The notes below the pieces were generated by a model. That model had not been told where the DNA came from, made no database searches, and saw only the letters and a list, made by a program, of their open reading frames with translations. The position numbers and the translations under genes were made by a program. Of a stretch of DNA of 64,000 bases, positions 5,395 to 64,000 are shown one piece after another (position 1 is the stretch's first letter; every line of letters begins with the position of its first letter). Source of the DNA: a virus; the IMG/VR virus record IMGVR_UViG_3300045988_175656, one strand, 5' to 3'.

Positions 5395-5471
5395 ATTTTT
5401 AATTGTTATTTCTTATGATACAAAGGTAGGGAAATTTCTATTCCCTACCAAATATTTTATGTTAATAAGAA

Positions 5472-14235: not shown

Positions 14236-14278
14236 TTCTTATTAACACAAAATATTTGGTAGGTATTGAAAAAATACC

Positions 14279-14356
14279 TACCTTTGTTGTGTAAGAAAAA
14301 AGTAGGGGTAATATTCTAAAGTATAGTCTCCAACAGGTAAAATATAAAATTGTTAA
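14279..14356 (+). repeat. promoter-coupled conserved element, copy H
   Basis: -7 box TACCTTTG 14279-14286 (hairpin 14258-14282 embedded), core AAAGTATAGTCTCC 14318-14331, GTTAA 14352-14356 (20-nt spacer). Confidence 0.75.
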
Positions 14357-15765: not shown

Positions 15766-15817
15766 TATTATTAACGAATAATAACATAGAATATTTGGTA
15801 GGGAACGGAAATTTCCC

Positions 15818-15825
15818 TACCTTTG
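15818..15825 (+). promoter_or_regulatory. -7 box TAccTTTG with embedded hairpin
   Basis: TTTGGTAGGGAAcggaaaTTTCCCTACCTTTG. Confidence 0.55.
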
Positions 15826-47479: not shown

Positions 47480-48643
47480 TTATAAACCAGTTGATAATGG
47501 TGCTTTTAAAACGCCTTGTGATACATAATTTTCTATTTTAATATCCTCAAATTCAAATTCATTAATAGTTTTGACTTTAGGATTTAAGTATAATGTTGGT
47601 GAATCAAGTACATCTCTTGAAATTAATTCTTTGGCTTGTTCTAAATGATTTAAATATAAATGAGTGTCACCACCATTAAATATTAAATCACCAACAGACA
47701 TATTACAAACATGGGCAATCATATGTGTTAGTAATGCATATGAAGCGATATTAAATGGTAAGCCTAAAAATGAATCAACACTTCTTTGATACCATGAGCA
47801 TGATAATTCTCTTGTTGGTATATTTTCCTCTTCTAAAAGATAGTCATATTCACCATTATAAGTATGTTGATTTGTTTGACCATAAACATCAAGATGTGGG
47901 TAAGAGAAATTATCATTATCAATTTCTTCATCTTTAAATTTATTATAGTATAACTCCCAACGTTCAGTATTTGACAATTCTCTTGTATAGAATTGGAAAA
48001 GTATATGACAAGGTGGTAATGCCACTTCATTTAATACATCAGGATTATACGCAATACATAACATTCTTCTATCATCAGGATTGGTTTTTAATGTATCAAT
48101 AATGTTTTGAATTTGGTCAGTATTACTACTGCCAAATCGTCTCCATTGTTTACCATATACATCTCCTAAATCTCCATATTCATAAAATTTTATTAAAGAA
48201 TCATTCTCTATATATTTAAATTTATGCCCATTTTTACATCTTGATAAAAAAACATTCTTATTCGCTTTTTCCATATAATTATAAAAATGTTCAACACCAT
48301 TATAATCCACAACTGTTAAAATACCACTTGTACCAATAATAGAATTATGTTTATCTATTAATTCACAATACCATCTATAAGCATCATCATTCCAAATATT
48401 AACTTCATTATCAACAAGATATTTAATATTTGTATCTCCACTCAGAAACCAAAGCAATTCGTGTATAATTCCTTTAGTGAACATTTTTTTTGTTGTTAAG
48501 AGTGGAAATCCTTTTCGTAAATCAATTTTCATATGTGTTCCAAAAATTGATTTAGTTCCTGTTCCTGTACGGTCTTTTTTTACATTTCCGTTTTCAAGAA
48601 TGTTTTTCAACAAATCTTGATATTGTTTATCTACACTATTCAT
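47480..48643 (-). CDS. thyA: thymidylate synthase (ThyA family) with two large insertions
   Basis: DRTGTGT, ALPPCH, WYQRSVDSFLGLPFNIASY (Asn, so dUMP-type) and GDTHLY. It is 387 aa, versus the E. coli enzyme, which I recall as 264 aa. Confidence 0.9.
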   Translation of the reverse strand: MNSVDKQYQDLLKNILENGNVKKDRTGTGTKSIFGTHMKIDLRKGFPLLTTKKMFTKGIIHELLWFLSGDTNIKYLVDNEVNIWNDDAYRWYCELIDKHNSIIGTSGILTVVDYNGVEHFYNYMEKANKNVFLSRCKNGHKFKYIENDSLIKFYEYGDLGDVYGKQWRRFGSSNTDQIQNIIDTLKTNPDDRRMLCIAYNPDVLNEVALPPCHILFQFYTRELSNTERWELYYNKFKDEEIDNDNFSYPHLDVYGQTNQHTYNGEYDYLLEEENIPTRELSCSWYQRSVDSFLGLPFNIASYALLTHMIAHVCNMSVGDLIFNGGDTHLYLNHLEQAKELISRDVLDSPTLYLNPKVKTINEFEFEDIKIENYVSQGVLKAPLSTGL

Positions 48644-57528: not shown

Positions 57529-57613
57529 TAATAAGGAAGTTTTGGCTGCTCTCCCAAAGAAAGCAGCCATTGTTATGTTTACACATGACATCTTCCACAC
57601 TAAATATAAATTA

Positions 57614-58048
57614 ATGCAAAAACTAAAACACATTTTATTAATTACTTTAATTGTTACTTGTTGTTCTTTAAAAGGACAATGTATTGAAAAAAATTTCGAT
57701 TGGAATAATGTAATATCAGCAATCGCTTATACAGAAAGTCGTTATGACCCTAATGCGGTATCAAAAACAGGAAATCATGTTGGATATTTACAAATATCAA
57801 AAATAATGATACGAGATTGCAATCGAATACTTGGTTATAACAAATATACTTATAAAGACAGATATAGTATTGAAAAATCCAAAGAAATTTTCCACTTAAT
57901 ACAAAAAACTTATAATCCGACAAATAATGTTGAAAAAGCTATAAGAATGTGGAATGGGGGTACTGGTTTTACCAAAGATGGTACTGAAGCGTATTATCAA
58001 AGAGTAAAAAGAAAATTAAATGCGTTAGAAAAGAGCAGGGATGAATAA
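57614..58048 (+). CDS. lytic transglycosylase (SLT-domain) with N-terminal signal/anchor
   Basis: AYTESRYDPNAVSKTGNHVGYLQIS. ORF track start 57542 is a TTG inside a hairpin (GGCTGCT/AGCAGCC), so the ATG at 57614 (MQKLKHILLITLIVTCCSL) is preferred. Confidence 0.75.
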   Translation: MQKLKHILLITLIVTCCSLKGQCIEKNFDWNNVISAIAYTESRYDPNAVSKTGNHVGYLQISKIMIRDCNRILGYNKYTYKDRYSIEKSKEIFHLIQKTYNPTNNVEKAIRMWNGGTGFTKDGTEAYYQRVKRKLNALEKSRDE

Positions 58049-58295: not shown

Positions 58296-61262
58296 ATGAT
58301 TGAAACAACTGAAAAACTTGTCGGTATAAAACAAGTATTACTACCTGAGTTTAAAGCAGCCGAAGAAGCTGGCACAACCAAAGGTTATATGTGGTTTGTT
58401 AGAGATAACAATATTACATTACATAACTATATCTATTTAGGCTCTCGTTTATATGGAGAAGCTGAAATTGAAGTTCCATTTGATAGTGTAATAACAAACA
58501 TTTTATCAGACAATTCAATAGTTGTAACAAAAACTTCTTCAGAAGAAGGAACAACAGTCGAATTGAAAATTAATTTAGACCCTAATGGTGGATTAACTCT
58601 TACTGAAAATGGTTTGCAAGTAGATATGTCTAAATTTATTTCTCAATCTGAATTAGACAAAGTAAAAGACGATATTAAAACTGTTAATGACAATTTAGTA
58701 ACTTCAATAAATACAATCAACCAAAATGTAGCTGATGGTTTCAACACTATTAATGGTGGTATTGAAAATGAAATTAAACCTGCAATAGCAGAAGCTAAGA
58801 AATTAACAGTTGATGAAACTGAAAGAGCACTTACTGCTGAAACTAATTTACAAACTAACATCAATGTTGAAACTACTGAAAGAAAAATTGATGTAGCAAA
58901 TTTACAAGGAAATATCAATATTGAGACTGAAAGGGCACTTGCTGCTGAAGCTGCATTAGCTGAAAAAGTAAAAGAAGTTGATGTTGATGAAATTAAAGCT
59001 GATATTAAAACAGTTAATGATAATTTAGTGACTGCTGTTAATACAATTAATCAAAATATGGCTGATGGTTTCAATACTATTAATGGTGGTATTGATAATG
59101 AAATAAGACCTGAATTAGCAAAAGCTGTTAAATATCAAGAATTTGATACTAATAGAAAAACTATTCAATTAGCTAACTTTGATACACTTTCAGGTATCAT
59201 GACTGATGGTGAGGGTGTGAATTTAGCAATGGTATCTAAATGGGATAAAGCTGACTTTGGTTCTACCAAACTTCCATTTAATATGAATGGTTCAGAAGAA
59301 AGACCAACATATAATGATACAAAAGAAGTTGCATTAATGGATGATATTAATAGTGAAATAACAAATGAATCTGACCGTGTTAATGCAATGATTGATGTTA
59401 TCAATGAAAGTATTAAAACAGTTAACGATAATTTGGTAGATGCTGTTAATACTATCAATGGCGGTATTGATAATGAAATAAGACCTGCTATTGAAGATTT
59501 AAAAGAAAACAAAGTTTCTTATGTAGAAGCCGAAAAAGAAGGTAAAAAATATAAAGTTATTCAATTGGATAATTATGCTAATTTAGTTGGTGAAGGTACT
59601 GATGAATTATCTGGTCAAACATTCAACATTGGTATGGTTTCTAAATGGAATAAAATTGATTTAGGTAGTGCATCATTAGAAATTAATTTAAATGGTAAAG
59701 CTAATAGACCAACATATAATGATACAAAAGAAATTGCATTAATAGAAGATGTTAATGGAAAAATTTCTTCTGTTGAATTAGTTCAAGATGTTGATAATCA
59801 ATTACATTATGAATTAATGGTTGATGGAGTTGTAAAAGGAGATATTAACATTCCTAAAGACCAATTCTTAAAAAATGTTGAATATGATGATACAACTAAA
59901 GAATTAGTATTTACATTTGATACAACTGATGGCGAAAAAGTGACAAAAGTTAATATTGGAGAATTAGTTGATACATACGAAGCAGGAAATGGTTTAGAAT
60001 TAAATGGAAACATATTTTCAATAAAATTAGACCCATCATCTCAATCATATATACAAGTAACTTCAGATGGTATTAAAATTATCGCTATTGATGAAGCAAT
60101 TTCAGAAATAAATGGAAAAATTACTGCTGAAGAAACACGTGCAAGTGGTGTTGAAGCTAAGTTAAGAACTGATGTTGATTATGAACATGAGAGAGCATTA
60201 GAAGCTGAAGCAAATATTAATAATGCTTTGGAAACAAAAGTAACTTGGGATGAAAGTAAATCTAAAATTGTATTACCTTCAGGTGGTCAAATAGTTGGTA
60301 CTAAATATGGCACAGATGGTAGTAATCCTGCTGATGGTGCAACTATTGCTCAATTAAGTCAATATGATATAATGGATTTTGGTTCTTCAAAATATCCATT
60401 AAACTTAAATGTACCAGCTGGTGTTAGAGTAACAGTTCAAGAACAAGGTCAATCAGGTGAAAATGCTAACAAAGTAGCTTATTTAAGTGATGTTGAGATT
60501 AAAGTTGATAAAGTAGATGGTAAAGGTTTATCAGAAGAAGATTTTACAACTGCATTAAAAACAAAACTTGAAGGTTTAAGTAATTATGATGATACAGATA
60601 TTAAAAATGATATAACATCATTAGATACTGCATATAAAACGGCTGATACAGCATTAGAAGAGAAAATCACTGCTAATGAACAAGCAATTGCAACTAAAGT
60701 TGATAAAGTAGATGGTATGGGTCTTTCGCAAGAAAGCTTCACAACTGTTGAAAAAACTAAACTTGAAGGGTTAAGTAATTATGATGATACTGCAATTAAA
60801 GCAAGTGTTGAAGAAAATAAAACTAACATTGCAGGCGTTAGAAGTGATTTAACTGCTGAAACAACTTTACAAGCCCAAAATTATGCAACTTTAACCAGAG
60901 ATTTAGGTTCTGAAATAACAAGAGCAACAAATAGAGAAAATACTATTGAAACAGCCGTTAATAACATAATAAACAATGGTTTAGCTTTACAAAATGGTAA
61001 ATCTATTACTGCATATCCAAATCCATCAGGTTCTAGCTCTCCTGTTGAAATATTAACAATTACATCTGGAAATGTTGTTAATGTTGGTTCTAATATTGGA
61101 ATTTTAGAGTTGGAAAGTAAAGGTGATATTGTAGCTATTTTAGATGGCGAAAGAAAAACAGTTGCAATTAAAGAAGATGTAGATAATTTAATTACTACCT
61201 TACAAACTACTATTGCTGCATTAACTACAAGAGTAGAAGCTTTAGAAGCTAAAAATCCTTAA
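58296..61262 (+). CDS. tail fibre with internally repeated modules
   Basis: Three copies of IKTVNDNLV..(I/V)NTIN...GGI(E/D)NEI(K/R)P, two copies of KVDKVDG(K/M)GLS.E.FTT..KTKLEGLSNYDDT.IK, and ERAL(T/A)AE coiled-coil repeats. Confidence 0.8.
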   Translation: MIETTEKLVGIKQVLLPEFKAAEEAGTTKGYMWFVRDNNITLHNYIYLGSRLYGEAEIEVPFDSVITNILSDNSIVVTKTSSEEGTTVELKINLDPNGGLTLTENGLQVDMSKFISQSELDKVKDDIKTVNDNLVTSINTINQNVADGFNTINGGIENEIKPAIAEAKKLTVDETERALTAETNLQTNINVETTERKIDVANLQGNINIETERALAAEAALAEKVKEVDVDEIKADIKTVNDNLVTAVNTINQNMADGFNTINGGIDNEIRPELAKAVKYQEFDTNRKTIQLANFDTLSGIMTDGEGVNLAMVSKWDKADFGSTKLPFNMNGSEERPTYNDTKEVALMDDINSEITNESDRVNAMIDVINESIKTVNDNLVDAVNTINGGIDNEIRPAIEDLKENKVSYVEAEKEGKKYKVIQLDNYANLVGEGTDELSGQTFNIGMVSKWNKIDLGSASLEINLNGKANRPTYNDTKEIALIEDVNGKISSVELVQDVDNQLHYELMVDGVVKGDINIPKDQFLKNVEYDDTTKELVFTFDTTDGEKVTKVNIGELVDTYEAGNGLELNGNIFSIKLDPSSQSYIQVTSDGIKIIAIDEAISEINGKITAEETRASGVEAKLRTDVDYEHERALEAEANINNALETKVTWDESKSKIVLPSGGQIVGTKYGTDGSNPADGATIAQLSQYDIMDFGSSKYPLNLNVPAGVRVTVQEQGQSGENANKVAYLSDVEIKVDKVDGKGLSEEDFTTALKTKLEGLSNYDDTDIKNDITSLDTAYKTADTALEEKITANEQAIATKVDKVDGMGLSQESFTTVEKTKLEGLSNYDDTAIKASVEENKTNIAGVRSDLTAETTLQAQNYATLTRDLGSEITRATNRENTIETAVNNIINNGLALQNGKSITAYPNPSGSSSPVEILTITSGNVVNVGSNIGILELESKGDIVAILDGERKTVAIKEDVDNLITTLQTTIAALTTRVEALEAKNP

Positions 61263-61462
61263 TTAAGATTATATAAATAATAAAGAGGGTAATCGAAACT
61301 AATTCTTTTACCCTCTTTTCTATTATACGCCTTTTTATTTTTATGGGGACGGTCTTTTGCTACCCACCGTCCACCATTTCTTTCTAGTTCTTCTTCTCTT
61401 GAAGCTTTTCTGTTAGCTTTAACATAATCTTCAATAGTTCCAATTTTAGTTTTTGCTTTCAT
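61259..61462 (-). CDS. small basic protein
   Basis: ORF track; Lys/Arg-rich. Confidence 0.5.
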   Translation of the reverse strand: MKAKTKIGTIEDYVKANRKASREEELERNGGRWVAKDRPHKNKKAYNRKEGKRISFDYPLYYLYNLN

Positions 61463-61489
61463 ATTAATAGTTTTATATCATATAAATAA

Positions 61490-62098
61490 TTATATTTTTA
61501 CTTTATAAAACTTTGAAAGATAATCATCAAGTCTTAAATGATGACTAAATGCCCATTTATGCGAATAAAACCAATCAAAATCAGATGTTAATGTTTTACG
61601 TTTATCTTTTTTAAAGATTTTTTCCCACCATTTTAGACCTGTAATTTTTCCAATATACATCCAATTAACAAGTTCAATTTCATCTTTTTCGCCACCAATA
61701 GCTTTCTCCAAAGAAAAATCTTCTTTGTCATCTGCAAAATAACCAAAATGTGCACTAACATTTTGTCTATTTTCTGCTGGGTCAGAATTAACTTTCAACA
61801 ATATAAGTTTTTTCTTATCACCAATAAAGCCTGTTTCTTCTTTTAATTCTCTAAGAACAGCATCTTCCAAAGTTTCATTAAAATCAAGATAGCCACATGG
61901 TACACAGAAATGACCAACATAATCTGCTGCGCCTTTTCCACGTTTTTCAGTTAACACAAATAGTTTGCCATCAACCTCTTTAAACACATACCCAACTACC
62001 GCCATTGCACGAGAAATCCAATAAATTTTACCTTCAACTTTAACTGGAAAATTTTGGTTTTCTGACAATGTTTTTTCAATTCTTGTTCCTTCTTTCAT
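61490..62098 (-). CDS. Nudix hydrolase
   Basis: Nudix box GYLDFNETLEDAVLRELKEETGF (GX5EX7REUXEEXGU). Confidence 0.85.
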   Translation of the reverse strand: MKEGTRIEKTLSENQNFPVKVEGKIYWISRAMAVVGYVFKEVDGKLFVLTEKRGKGAADYVGHFCVPCGYLDFNETLEDAVLRELKEETGFIGDKKKLILLKVNSDPAENRQNVSAHFGYFADDKEDFSLEKAIGGEKDEIELVNWMYIGKITGLKWWEKIFKKDKRKTLTSDFDWFYSHKWAFSHHLRLDDYLSKFYKVKI

Positions 62099-62099
62099 G

Positions 62100-62222
62100 T
62101 TAATATTTATTAATTAATGTTTCTAATATTTCAAACCAATAGCATTTATTAGTTTTTTCATCCATTATCAGAAATGGCATCATTCCAATAACAGTTATTA
62201 CCATAATAATTGTGATAAGCAT
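62100..62222 (-). CDS. small membrane protein (40 aa)
   Basis: Own translation MLITIIMVITVIGMMPFLIMDEKTNKCYWFEILETLINKY. Fills the gap between the channel and Nudix genes. Confidence 0.3.
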   Translation of the reverse strand: MLITIIMVITVIGMMPFLIMDEKTNKCYWFEILETLINKY

Positions 62223-62235
62223 CCATAAAGCAATA

Positions 62236-63039
62236 CTAATCGTTATTCCCAAACTTCTCATTTTGCTTTTTAATCATTTCTTTTAATTCTTGTAATTCTT
62301 TCATTACATTGTCATTATTATCAACAGCTAATTCATCTGTAAATGACGATGTAACAAAACTCATGCCAAACATGCCACCAATCAACACTATCAAACAAAA
62401 TGCAATTTTACTAATTGTTCCTATTAGTGGCGATGTGTTGTCAGCAATTGCGTTAGGTATATCATACCACCCTTCAATTGTAAACATTCTAAATACAGTA
62501 TATATGGATTCAATTGGATTACCAAAATATTCAGGAGCAATTTTAGAATATAAACTTGATAATATAATTGATATAATAAATATTAGTATGAATATTCCAA
62601 CAATTACACCAATACTAGCTCTAAACGCAATTTTAAGATTCAATAATAATCTTTCATAATTCGGTATTGCTCTGAATAATCTTGTACATTTAAAAATCCT
62701 AACTGTTCTTAATACCAAGAGATAATCCATTCTTTCTAAATAAGAACCAAAAAACAATGGTAATAAACTAATAACAACCAATATAAAATCAAATGTGTTT
62801 ATATGTTTTTTAAAAAACCGTTTTCCATATATTTTTACTTTAATAGCAATTTCGATTCCAAATATTATTGTTAAAATCAAATCAATAGTAACCATTCTAT
62901 CGTGTAACCACAATGGAATACTACTGAATGCCAATAAAAATGTAACAAAACAGTTAATAACTATTAACCATGTTATATTATTATCATTCAGAAAAAACGA
63001 ATATATATTCTTTATTATTTTTAGTTTCATATTTGTCAT
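62236..63039 (-). CDS. voltage-gated cation channel, NaChBac/BacNav family
   Basis: S4 LRTVRIFKCTRLFR (basic residue every third position). Pore APEYFGNPIESIYTVFRMFTIEGWYD compares with NaChBac SPEYFGNLQLSLLTLFQVVTLESWAS. IDLILTIIFGIEIAIKV and NTFDFILVV also match. C-terminal coiled coil. Confidence 0.85.
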   Translation of the reverse strand: MTNMKLKIIKNIYSFFLNDNNITWLIVINCFVTFLLAFSSIPLWLHDRMVTIDLILTIIFGIEIAIKVKIYGKRFFKKHINTFDFILVVISLLPLFFGSYLERMDYLLVLRTVRIFKCTRLFRAIPNYERLLLNLKIAFRASIGVIVGIFILIFIISIILSSLYSKIAPEYFGNPIESIYTVFRMFTIEGWYDIPNAIADNTSPLIGTISKIAFCLIVLIGGMFGMSFVTSSFTDELAVDNNDNVMKELQELKEMIKKQNEKFGNND

Positions 63040-63052
63040 TATTAAAACAATG

Positions 63053-63060
63053 CAAATATA
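63053..63060 (-). promoter_or_regulatory. -7 box TAtaTTTG (class II)
   Basis: Minus strand reads TATATTTGCAttg, 14 nt upstream of the channel ATG. Confidence 0.5.
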
Positions 63061-63103
63061 ATACTAATTTCTATAAAACCAAAAAATTAATATCTAATAA
63101 ATG

Positions 63104-64000
63104 TTAATCCATAAACATTTTAAGATTTTCAACAATATATGGATTATATAATTCAATATCAGGCATTTCTTCTTTTGTTCTTGTCACGCCATATAATGTA
63201 GTGTGTATAATATCATATAAATGTTGATTATTACTATGATAATGAATGAAACCATTTGTCTTATCAATAGCTCCATATTCCAAAAGAATACCTGCTGCCA
63301 TAGCAGTCTTACACTTTTCCGTAGTAAAAGCATAATTAAAACCCATAAATATACGACTATCCCCCATAATTGGGTTTTCAATCGCATCAAGACATGGAGA
63401 TAAACCTAAAACCTTGACCATTTCAATTCTCCAATATTCTCTTAACTTATTTATTTCCATATCATTGATTATAATTCTATTATAATCAAAATCATACCAT
63501 TTTAATCCTGTTTCAGAATCATGGTTTGAAATATTCATATTAGTTGGTCTTAGTATGAAATAAACATCCGCACCAAGTTCTTCCAATGCTTTCTTTTCGT
63601 TTGGAAAACGGCAATCATCAACAATTATTATTTTATCAGTTGATTGGTATTCTTTAATTTCGTTAACTAATGTATCAACATGCCAATTAGGTTCAAATTT
63701 TCTAATAAGATTAGTTCCAATTATTTGAAGCATCATTCTAACTGATGTAAAAGTTGTACCATTAATTATTTCTCTTATTGATTTTTCATCAATATTTGTT
63801 CTTTTATTGATTATTCTAATCCACCTTATATCAGGAACTATTGAAAACTTATTAGGAATATTCTTTATTTCATTTAATTCATCATATGTTATGTTTAACA
63901 GTTCAGCACATAAGTTCTTCAACGCATTACCAAAACTAAAAACACTTACATTTTCAAAATTTTCTATACATACAGAAGCTAACTCTGATTTTCCAGACTG
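63104..64000 (-). CDS. P-loop protein (possibly dNMP-kinase-like), 5' end beyond window
   Basis: The ORF track start at 63922 is a TTG. The frame stays open to nt 64000 and reads QSGKSELASVCIENF..., the tail of a Walker A motif. Confidence 0.6.
   Translation of the reverse strand, partial: QSGKSELASVCIENFENVSVFSFGNALKNLCAELLNITYDELNEIKNIPNKFSIVPDIRWIRIINKRTNIDEKSIREIINGTTFTSVRMMLQIIGTNLIRKFEPNWHVDTLVNEIKEYQSTDKIIIVDDCRFPNEKKALEELGADVYFILRPTNMNISNHDSETGLKWYDFDYNRIIINDMEINKLREYWRIEMVKVLGLSPCLDAIENPIMGDSRIFMGFNYAFTTEKCKTAMAAGILLEYGAIDKTNGFIHYHSNNQHLYDIIHTTLYGVTRTKEEMPDIELYNPYIVENLKMFMD

Follow-up and report, generated by a model that had tools for sequence, protein, structure and literature searches.

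The 64,000-nucleotide stretch of viral DNA analyzed here (IMG/VR record IMGVR_UViG_3300045988_175656; hereafter the window) encodes, near its right end, a putative voltage-gated cation channel of 267 amino acids (62236..63039, minus strand). Broadly, the evidence assembled below suggests that this protein is, on balance probably, a functional homotetrameric channel of the one-domain Nav/Cav superfamily that opens on depolarization, and that the gene belongs to an uncultured phage with a genome of roughly 220 kb, which most likely infects a member of the Bacteroidota. As far as sequence comparison can tell, what is new is a one-domain Nav/Cav member from an uncharacterized clade, with a Ca2+-type selectivity filter, in a phage setting.

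Sequence and predicted structure of the channel

The open reading frame (ORF) had been proposed earlier from the sequence, and both its limits and the peptides quoted for the second, third and fourth transmembrane segments (S2, S3, S4), the pore and the C terminus are found exactly as given; the NaChBac pore given for comparison (SPEYFGNLQLSLLTLFQVVTLESWAS) likewise agrees with the published sequence. Translation may also start at a second in-frame ATG nine bases downstream (at 63030), and the resulting 264-residue form is the one chosen by gene callers in relatives. A profile search, in which the original prediction had seen a way to expose a non-channel protein, returned Pfam Ion_trans (PF00520; a score of 73.4 bits where the gathering threshold is 25; E 2e-20), with residues 23-229 aligned to positions 9-225 of the 241-position profile. 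Among all PDB chains (phmmer), the best match was NavMs (E 4e-22), followed by 130 channel chains that include NaChBac, NavAb, CavAb, Nav1.7 chimeras and T-type Ca2+ channels.

An AlphaFold2 model of the monomer, built on 32 homologues, has a mean predicted local distance difference test score (pLDDT) of 80.8 and consists of helices corresponding to S1 (residues 19-36), S2 (43-77), S3 (79-97), S4 (104-124), the S4-S5 linker with S5 (128-164) and the pore helices P1 (175-186) and P2 (193-200), with S6 and the tail predicted as one long helix (204-264). When this model was compared to the PDB with Foldseek, the top matches were exclusively BacNav and CatSper chains (TM-scores 0.6-0.75 to NavAb, NavMs, NaChBac and CatSper). 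Model, hydropathy and Foldseek support a single-domain layout of six transmembrane segments (6TM), i.e., a voltage-sensor domain (S1-S4) and a pore domain (S5-P1-filter-P2-S6). Assignment of the protein to the BacNav (one-domain Nav/Cav) superfamily of voltage-gated cation channels, as first proposed, is thus supported by sequence, profile and predicted fold.

The voltage-sensor domain (residues 19-124; 62668..62985, minus strand), as delimited by the model helices and the alignment, contains the S2 segment IDLILTIIFGIEIAIKV (residues 52-68), the S3 segment NTFDFILVV (80-88) and the S4 segment LRTVRIFKCTRLFR (110-123). Gating charges occupy every third position of S4 (R111, R114, K117 and R120, plus R123) and align with those of NavMs, and the charge-transfer centre is formed by F60, E63 and K67 of S2 and D84 of S3. 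Conservation was scored in an alignment of 32 sequences, where F60, E63, K67, R111 and R114 never vary and at least 90% of the sequences keep D84 and R120, and motifs were counted in 79 cellular homologues, 77 of which have an RxxRxxRxxR-type S4.

The pore domain (residues 128-232; 62344..62658, minus strand), outlined by modelled secondary structure and invariant residues, includes the segment APEYFGNPIESIYTVFRMFTIEGWYD (168-193) and carries the FxxxTxExW pore signature (F183-R-M-F-T187-I-E189-G-W191). The sequence of the selectivity filter is T187-I-E189-G190-W191-Y-D193 (TIEGWYD; 62461..62481, minus strand). Ten pore residues are invariant among the 32 sequences (P169, P175, Y180, F183, F186, E189, W191, P195, G222 and G225), and G190 is at least 90% conserved. 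By sequence, both the voltage sensor and the pore are intact. S6 (residues 204-232) is rich in glycine and carries GGMFGMSF. The predicted cytoplasmic tail (62239..62343, minus strand; alignment and model) begins with an acidic stretch, D235...D240-N-N-D243 (D235 invariant; D240, N241 and N242 at least 90% conserved in the same alignment), and continues as a helix (residues 244-264) that includes MKELQELKEMIKKQNEK (246-262) and a heptad-like stretch of about two to three heptads (L249, L252, I256, F263), in a model that is itself monomeric.

The channel matched nothing in the PADLOC defence models or in NCBIfam, and only weakly one PHROG family, of unknown function (phrog_7872). Two antisense ORFs (62309..62659 and 62795..63061, plus strand) were judged spurious in view of the high AT content of this region and the strong coding constraint acting on the other strand.

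Relationship to known channels

Neighbour-joining trees (about 240 columns, limited sampling, 500 bootstraps) were built with the reference set published with the CavMr channel of Meiothermus ruber (Shimomura et al., 2020; PMC7041947). The phage protein and its Bacteroidota relatives split from all references in 500/500 bootstraps and fell outside the three described groups (Bacillus/NaChBac, NavAb-like and the ancestor-like AnclNav), so that the initial label "NaChBac-type" gives way to a separate clade shared with Bacteroidota homologues. Among the sampled sequences, the phage copies form one clade of their own, again in 500/500 bootstraps, apart from the cellular members. A more distant version defines a second viral clade (L030, L031 and L033, on contigs of 47-189 kb), whose filter has Asn6 and Thr/Ser7 in place of Tyr6 and Asp7.

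Cellular homologues were found in at least 538 species of the genome collection, at 34-44% identity, and the closest are overwhelmingly from Bacteroidota (Prevotella, Bacteroidales and Flavobacteriaceae among them). These proteins, annotated as "ion transporter" or "voltage-gated sodium channel" (e.g., P0032 from a Bacteroidales metagenome-assembled genome (MAG) or that of Prevotella sp. P6B1), resemble the phage channel in clade, in the family motif FT[IV]EGWY[DE]IP, in DNND and in their length of about 260 residues; they are at most 44% identical to it, and the phage copies stand as a clade apart. The filter variant [TS][IV]EGWY[ED] occurs in 76/79 cellular loci. Two further traits, a glycine-rich S6 with GGxFGxS and DNND immediately after S6, mark the family and were seen in none of the characterized BacNavs. 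As all of these homologues are uncharacterized, no functional information can be drawn from them.

Of the characterized channels, NavMs comes closest in sequence (33% identity across residues 19-191; E 1e-26), with NaChBac and NavAb at 31% and CavMr at 25% (E 4e-7). NavMs and NavAb share with the phage channel the single-domain 6TM organization, four S4 charges, a charge-transfer centre with F/E in S2 and D in S3, the FxxxTxExW signature and a helical C-terminal tail. They differ from it in the filter (TLESWSM in NavMs, TIEGWYD in the phage channel), in S6, which in the phage protein is glycine-rich, aligns poorly past residue 192 and is followed by DNND, in their placement on the other side of the 500/500 split, and in that the new channel is encoded by a phage. 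The filter of CavMr (TLEGWVD) is identical to TIEGWYD at 5/7 positions, including Glu3, Gly4 and Asp7; however, the two proteins are only about 25% identical, the phage channel lies outside the AnclNav clade and has no counterpart of the long loop between P2 and S6 seen in CavMr and NavPp, and position 6 is Tyr rather than Val.

Virus-borne cation channels have a precedent in viral K+ channels (chlorovirus Kcv, and putative ones in vibriophages and mycobacteriophages; PMC6163359), which act on the membranes of the host. Kcv-like channels consist of a 2TM pore only, with a K+ filter of the T(I/V)GFGD type, and have no voltage sensor; the 6TM, TxEGW architecture found here rules out that class. 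The canonical NaChBac/NavAb group was set aside on the basis of the Gly4/Asp7 filter and the tree, and AnclNav membership on the basis of the tree and the 25% identity to CavMr, although Gly4 and the acidic or polar position 7 used to define AnclNav are present, as G190 and D193.

Ion selectivity

The original prediction had pointed to a TIEGW filter that keeps the key Glu and Trp, and had warned that selectivity may differ; both statements stand, and can be refined by the presence of Gly4 and Asp7 as in CavMr, the only voltage-gated Ca2+ channel described as native to a prokaryote (PMC7041947). In that study, the substitutions G4S and G4D lowered the permeability ratio PCa/PNa of CavMr from >200 to about 10, V6T reduced its selectivity, D4G made NavPp selective for divalent cations, and NavPp bearing the CavMr filter reached a PCa/PNa of 215 (PMC7041947). 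A 2026 study of NavAb found that filter position 7, which is Asp in CavMr, CaChBac and CavAb and in every other Ca2+-selective prokaryotic channel, sorts monovalent from divalent ions. Because the phage filter carries both Gly4 and Asp7, we consider, with moderate confidence and by analogy, that permeability to Ca2+ (or divalents) is more likely than Na+ selectivity. Confidence is held at this level by the different clade backbone, the change at position 6 and the observation that filter swaps between clades sometimes abolish current.

Genomic context, selection and host

The window has 26% G+C and includes genes for tail-fibre proteins, an NAD-dependent ligase, thymidylate synthase (ThyA), a deoxynucleoside monophosphate (dNMP) kinase, a ClpB-like ATPase, an HNH endonuclease and one tRNA. 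The tail-fibre, ligase, ThyA and dNMP-kinase genes match PHROG families, and channel copies 97-99% identical to that of the window reside on IMG/VR viral contigs of 215, 220, 221 and 380 kb, which bears out the phage origin proposed at the outset. The subfamily was also recovered from other large viral contigs (47-400 kb). Since a megablast of positions 61000-64000 found no nucleotide match in GenBank phages, the lineage is taken to be uncultured. A syntenic relative (about 50% identity) has a large-terminase gene some 9 kb upstream, for which the nearest cultured counterpart is that of Flavobacterium phage immuto (27% identity). Promoter consensus (see below), cellular channel homologues and this terminase together point to a Bacteroidota member as the most likely host.

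The channel is under strong purifying selection, with ratios of non-synonymous to synonymous substitution rates (dN/dS) of 0.017-0.087 against close phage copies (e.g., 7 non-synonymous vs. 71 synonymous differences from L011). The arrangement dNMP kinase - channel - Nudix - small basic ORF recurs in four sublineages (99, 87, 50 and 48% identity), in a block that faces a large convergent gene and a ClpB-like gene, and synteny is conserved on >15 contigs with lengths of 100-400 kb. Where identity is about 50%, only 14 nt separate the channel start from the end of the dNMP-kinase gene, and the channel and Nudix genes overlap; in these relatives the channel is therefore part of a nucleotide-metabolism operon.

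In the window, the upstream neighbour is the dNMP kinase gene (63104..64000, minus strand; Pfam DNMK, E 4e-17), which runs off the end of the window and is complete, with 308 residues, in the relative L004. A Nudix hydrolase gene (61490..62098, minus strand; Pfam NUDIX, E 1e-11) lies downstream in the same transcription unit, in agreement with the original prediction, and directly follows the channel in every relative of this lineage, with a small ORF between the two where one is present. That ORF, first described as a single-transmembrane frame of 40 residues (62100..62222), is real, yet better read as 53 residues (62100..62261, minus strand), as in the relatives; it then shares 26 nt with the 3' end of the channel gene and stops 1 nt short of the Nudix ATG. 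Gene callers report it in L004, L005 and L006, and 6/7 close relatives, with amino-acid identities as low as 60%, keep its frame and length; the copy in L010 is truncated, relatives at about 50% identity have none, and dN/dS is 0.3-0.7 over few sites. It has one predicted transmembrane helix and is probably a real small membrane protein; a partnership of its product with the channel is possible but unsupported. The last gene of the operon encodes a very basic protein of 67 residues (61259-61462, minus strand), conserved in relatives.

Promoter and expression

The channel promoter had been described as a "class II promoter" at 63053-63060. The box itself, TATATTTG, is real, and we now read it as the -7 element of a Bacteroidota-type promoter (63053..63083, minus strand) with TTTG at -33 (63080-63083) and a 19-nt spacer, located 13 nt upstream of the channel ATG. 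This arrangement follows the consensus of the Bacteroides primary sigma factor, TTTG at -33 and TAnnTTTG at -7 (PMC7366714). When the window was scanned for TTTG-N18-21-TAnnTTTG, 44 matches were obtained against 5.2 expected, a number reached in 0/100 shuffles, and the matches track gene orientation. Upstream of the channel, the -7 box TTATATTTGC is invariant in 7 relatives, whereas the spacer is variable. A scan for sigma-70 promoters gave 30 sites against 23 expected; as this is no enrichment, the Bacteroidota consensus was preferred. By its sequence, the channel promoter would thus be of the host type (sigma-ABfr), pointing to a Bacteroidota host. The sigma-70 promoter and terminator scan returned no terminator downstream of the channel operon.

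The promoter matches are unevenly distributed, with 41/44 densely placed in window positions 1-25700, on both strands and ahead of small ORFs (e.g., 2145-2176, 5421-5452, 14255-14286 and 15794-15825). Many of these hold a near-palindromic core, TTTGGTAGG-N-CCTACCTTTG, which suggests an additional regulator-binding site in this early region. For the channel, its own host-type promoter and its packing with nucleotide-metabolism genes favour expression in the early or middle (replication) phase, as inferred from context, rather than with the late genes.

Proposed role in infection and alternative readings

The following course of events would be consistent with these data. Host RNA polymerase with its primary sigma factor would transcribe the channel from the host-type promoter, in one unit with the 53-residue membrane ORF, the Nudix hydrolase and the small basic protein, and as part of the early/middle, replication-phase class of genes. 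The protein would enter the host cytoplasmic membrane, where S4 with its four conserved gating charges would sense the potential; by analogy with the family, it would assemble as a tetramer and open on depolarization. Cations would then flow inward down their electrochemical gradient, through a pore predicted to present eight carboxylates per tetramer (four E189, four D193) together with Gly4 as in CavMr, the permeant ion being most likely Ca2+ or other divalents, with Na+ as the alternative. As depolarization would open the channel and opening would itself depolarize, the response would be regenerative, and the net effect would be a phage-controlled shift of host membrane potential and cytoplasmic cation level. 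Directly observed are the homology, the modelled fold, sequence conservation, purifying selection, the phage context and the promoter motif; the tetrameric state, the direction of gating, the selectivity, the timing of expression and the benefit to the phage are all points that we infer.

Among candidate roles, a general remodelling of host ion fluxes and energetics is favoured because the channel subfamily lies near an ATP-binding cassette (ABC) importer in three other phage lineages. One may speculate beyond this, and much more tentatively, that jumbo phages of Bacteroidota bear the first voltage-gated Ca2+ channel of a prokaryotic virus; that it represents a fourth Nav/Cav clade, natively Ca2+-selective through Gly4/Asp7; that regenerative Ca2+ entry acts as a switch on host energetics during replication; and that in sister lineages channel and ABC importer form a "membrane takeover" module. 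We regard this extended version as possible at best.

The linkage to the importer was observed on IMG/VR contigs of 100-400 kb (L016 4315-9940, L028 1016-6756, L031 126-6783), where the importer lies within a few genes of the channel or directly abuts it, with gene order shuffled and linkage retained. The importer is made up of a permease, an ATPase and an NMT1-type substrate-binding protein that carries a fused OmpA domain, and is accompanied by two conserved genes of unknown function. Two further contigs (L127 and L130) have the importer without the channel. For the phage of the window itself, an ABC importer was sought in the window, in the flanks of its relatives and in their IMG/VR contigs, and none was found.

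Several observations weigh against a functional Ca2+-type channel in a Bacteroidota phage. The putative C-terminal coiled coil is short, and most phmmer alignments to solved BacNav chains stop at about residue 192; with a glycine-rich S6 unlike that of characterized BacNavs, gating may differ. NavAb given the full CavMr filter passed no current (PMC7041947), Gly4 alone in NavAb (TLEGWSM, with Met7) leaves Ca2+ excluded (2026 study), and an identity of about 25% to CavMr, from outside its clade, makes the transfer of selectivity rules risky. The assignment of the host to Bacteroidota is indirect. Finally, a related viral contig carries a decayed channel gene (L128, 5460-5983), with an internal deletion around S4-S5 and frame shifts, beside intact ABC-importer genes, which indicates that some lineages, at least, can do without the channel.

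The likeliest alternative, which we consider doubtful but deserving of attention, is a BacNav selective for Na+ like those of the NaChBac and NavAb groups, in keeping with the original label; it would run down the sodium-motive force and the membrane potential that power respiration (Na+-NQR) and transport in Bacteroidota. Na+ channels give the best matches in both sequence and structure (NavMs at the head of them), the core TxExW motif is retained, and NavAb with Gly4 alone stays selective for Na+/Li+ (2026 study); yet Gly stands in place of the Ser4 of TLESW, and Asp at position 7, in the same 76/79 cellular relatives and in the extracted copies of the phage clade, Asp7 is the very change that turns NaChBac and NavAb into Ca2+ channels (2026 study), and the family falls outside both canonical Nav groups. 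Whatever the ion, the gene could be a passenger, taken from a host not long ago and serving no purpose, or else no phage gene at all but bacterial DNA wrongly joined to a viral contig during assembly. Contigs of only 4-6 kb that are classed as viral (L024-27, L029, L032) do group with cellular sequences and may be misclassified, and the decayed copy in one lineage would fit as well. Against this, dN/dS is 0.02-0.09, the phage clade is monophyletic with its closest cellular relatives at no more than 44% identity, the synteny holds across the >15 large contigs, and the upstream promoter is of a type common to other genes of the phage. This reading is largely refuted and very improbable.

If the protein is a phage channel, it might also serve a purpose other than the favoured remodelling of host energetics. 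The roles put forward in the original prediction (lysis timing, exclusion and motility) are speculative. Holin triggering and the release of signal-anchor-release (SAR) endolysins respond to depolarization. A channel that amplifies a late drop in potential into an all-or-none collapse could thereby release or activate a membrane-tethered endolysin and time lysis, and a candidate muramidase with an SLT domain is encoded some 4 kb away (57542..58048, plus strand). That gene is, however, neither adjacent to the channel nor on the same strand; the channel is packed with dNMP kinase and Nudix genes behind a host-type promoter like those of early-region genes, and in the other phage lineages it is the ABC importer, not lysis genes, that stands beside it, all of which makes a lysis role unlikely. 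The same early, host-type promoter would fit a function in superinfection exclusion or counter-defence, in which the channel would answer the depolarization caused by DNA entry of a second phage or by a host abortive-infection pore, and so block entry or buffer the signal. Here the hint comes from 22/80 cellular loci in which the gene for an HSDR_N-domain protein comes right after the homologue, as might be expected of conflict-related modules; but neither the channel nor this neighbour matched a PADLOC model, the linkage may just reflect the relatedness of the sampled genomes, and we hold such a function to be quite improbable.

Near its N terminus, the SLT lytic transglycosylase candidate is hydrophobic over residues 30-48 (ILLITLIVTCCSLKG), a segment that could be a signal-anchor or a lipoprotein signal, and no obvious holin lies beside the gene. 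The HSDR_N protein (L036 3803-4879, and 21 other loci among L034-L113) is about 358 residues long, is encoded immediately after the channel homologue on the same strand, and takes its name from the nuclease-like N-terminal domain of type I restriction R proteins; the two genes may form a module.

Prior knowledge and implications

The automatic annotation of the Joint Genome Institute (JGI) names several relatives, including P0012 of the phage clade, "voltage-gated sodium channel", and these labels, with the weak PHROG match, indicate that the sequence family is visible to annotation pipelines. The original prediction had stated that no characterized phage counterpart is known, and this holds for GenBank phages, BFVD and the literature searched; the survey of phage databases that it had called for yielded the copies on large IMG/VR contigs and nothing convincing among GenBank phages. 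Specifically, tblastn with three divergent phage-channel variants found no such gene in GenBank phages, with one doubtful exception; no BFVD viral structure matched at E <= 1e-3; and the literature searched contained no report of a phage voltage-gated channel. A survey of viral transport proteins published in 2018 includes K+ channels of phages and a number of transporters, and the word "voltage" is absent from it (PMC6163359). The exception (L114 2839-3543; MT835812.1, "UNVERIFIED Bacteriophage sp.") comes from a 17-kb scaffold from human faeces, where a NavAb-like ORF of 234 residues, with TLESW replaced by FSPDSG, adjoins a prepilin-peptidase-like gene; this scaffold may be bacterial DNA.

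Voltage-gated channels are best known from eukaryotic excitable cells, and their roles in bacteria are poorly understood. Strong purifying selection in a phage implies that gated cation entry has a direct effect on fitness during infection, and such a gene offers a natural handle on bacterial electrical and Ca2+ signalling. With this family, the Gly4/Asp7 rule for Ca2+ could also be examined independently in a second natural case, on a backbone very unlike that of CavMr, and the small phage versions (about 264 residues) could serve as compact, genetically encoded tools for Ca2+ entry. More broadly, the analysis flags a large uncharacterized clade of such channels in Bacteroidota (at least 538 species), with many members in rumen- or gut-associated Bacteroidales and Prevotella MAGs.

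Other features of the window

Opposite the channel operon lies a convergent gene (58296-61262, plus strand) for a repeat-rich protein of 988 residues, probably a fibre, whose end overlaps that of the 67-residue ORF by 4 nt; no intrinsic terminator was detected between these two genes. Elsewhere in the syntenic block, IS605-family OrfB/TnpB (Cas12f-like) genes occur as insertions at differing sites in the phage relatives at about 50% identity (L002 6368-7687, L007 11464-13092), and one such insertion sits between the Nudix gene and the small basic ORF. The thymidylate synthase of the window (47480-48643, minus strand) is 387 residues long with a PHROG match that spans only profile positions 29-309, which suggests that about 100 residues have been inserted into its central part.

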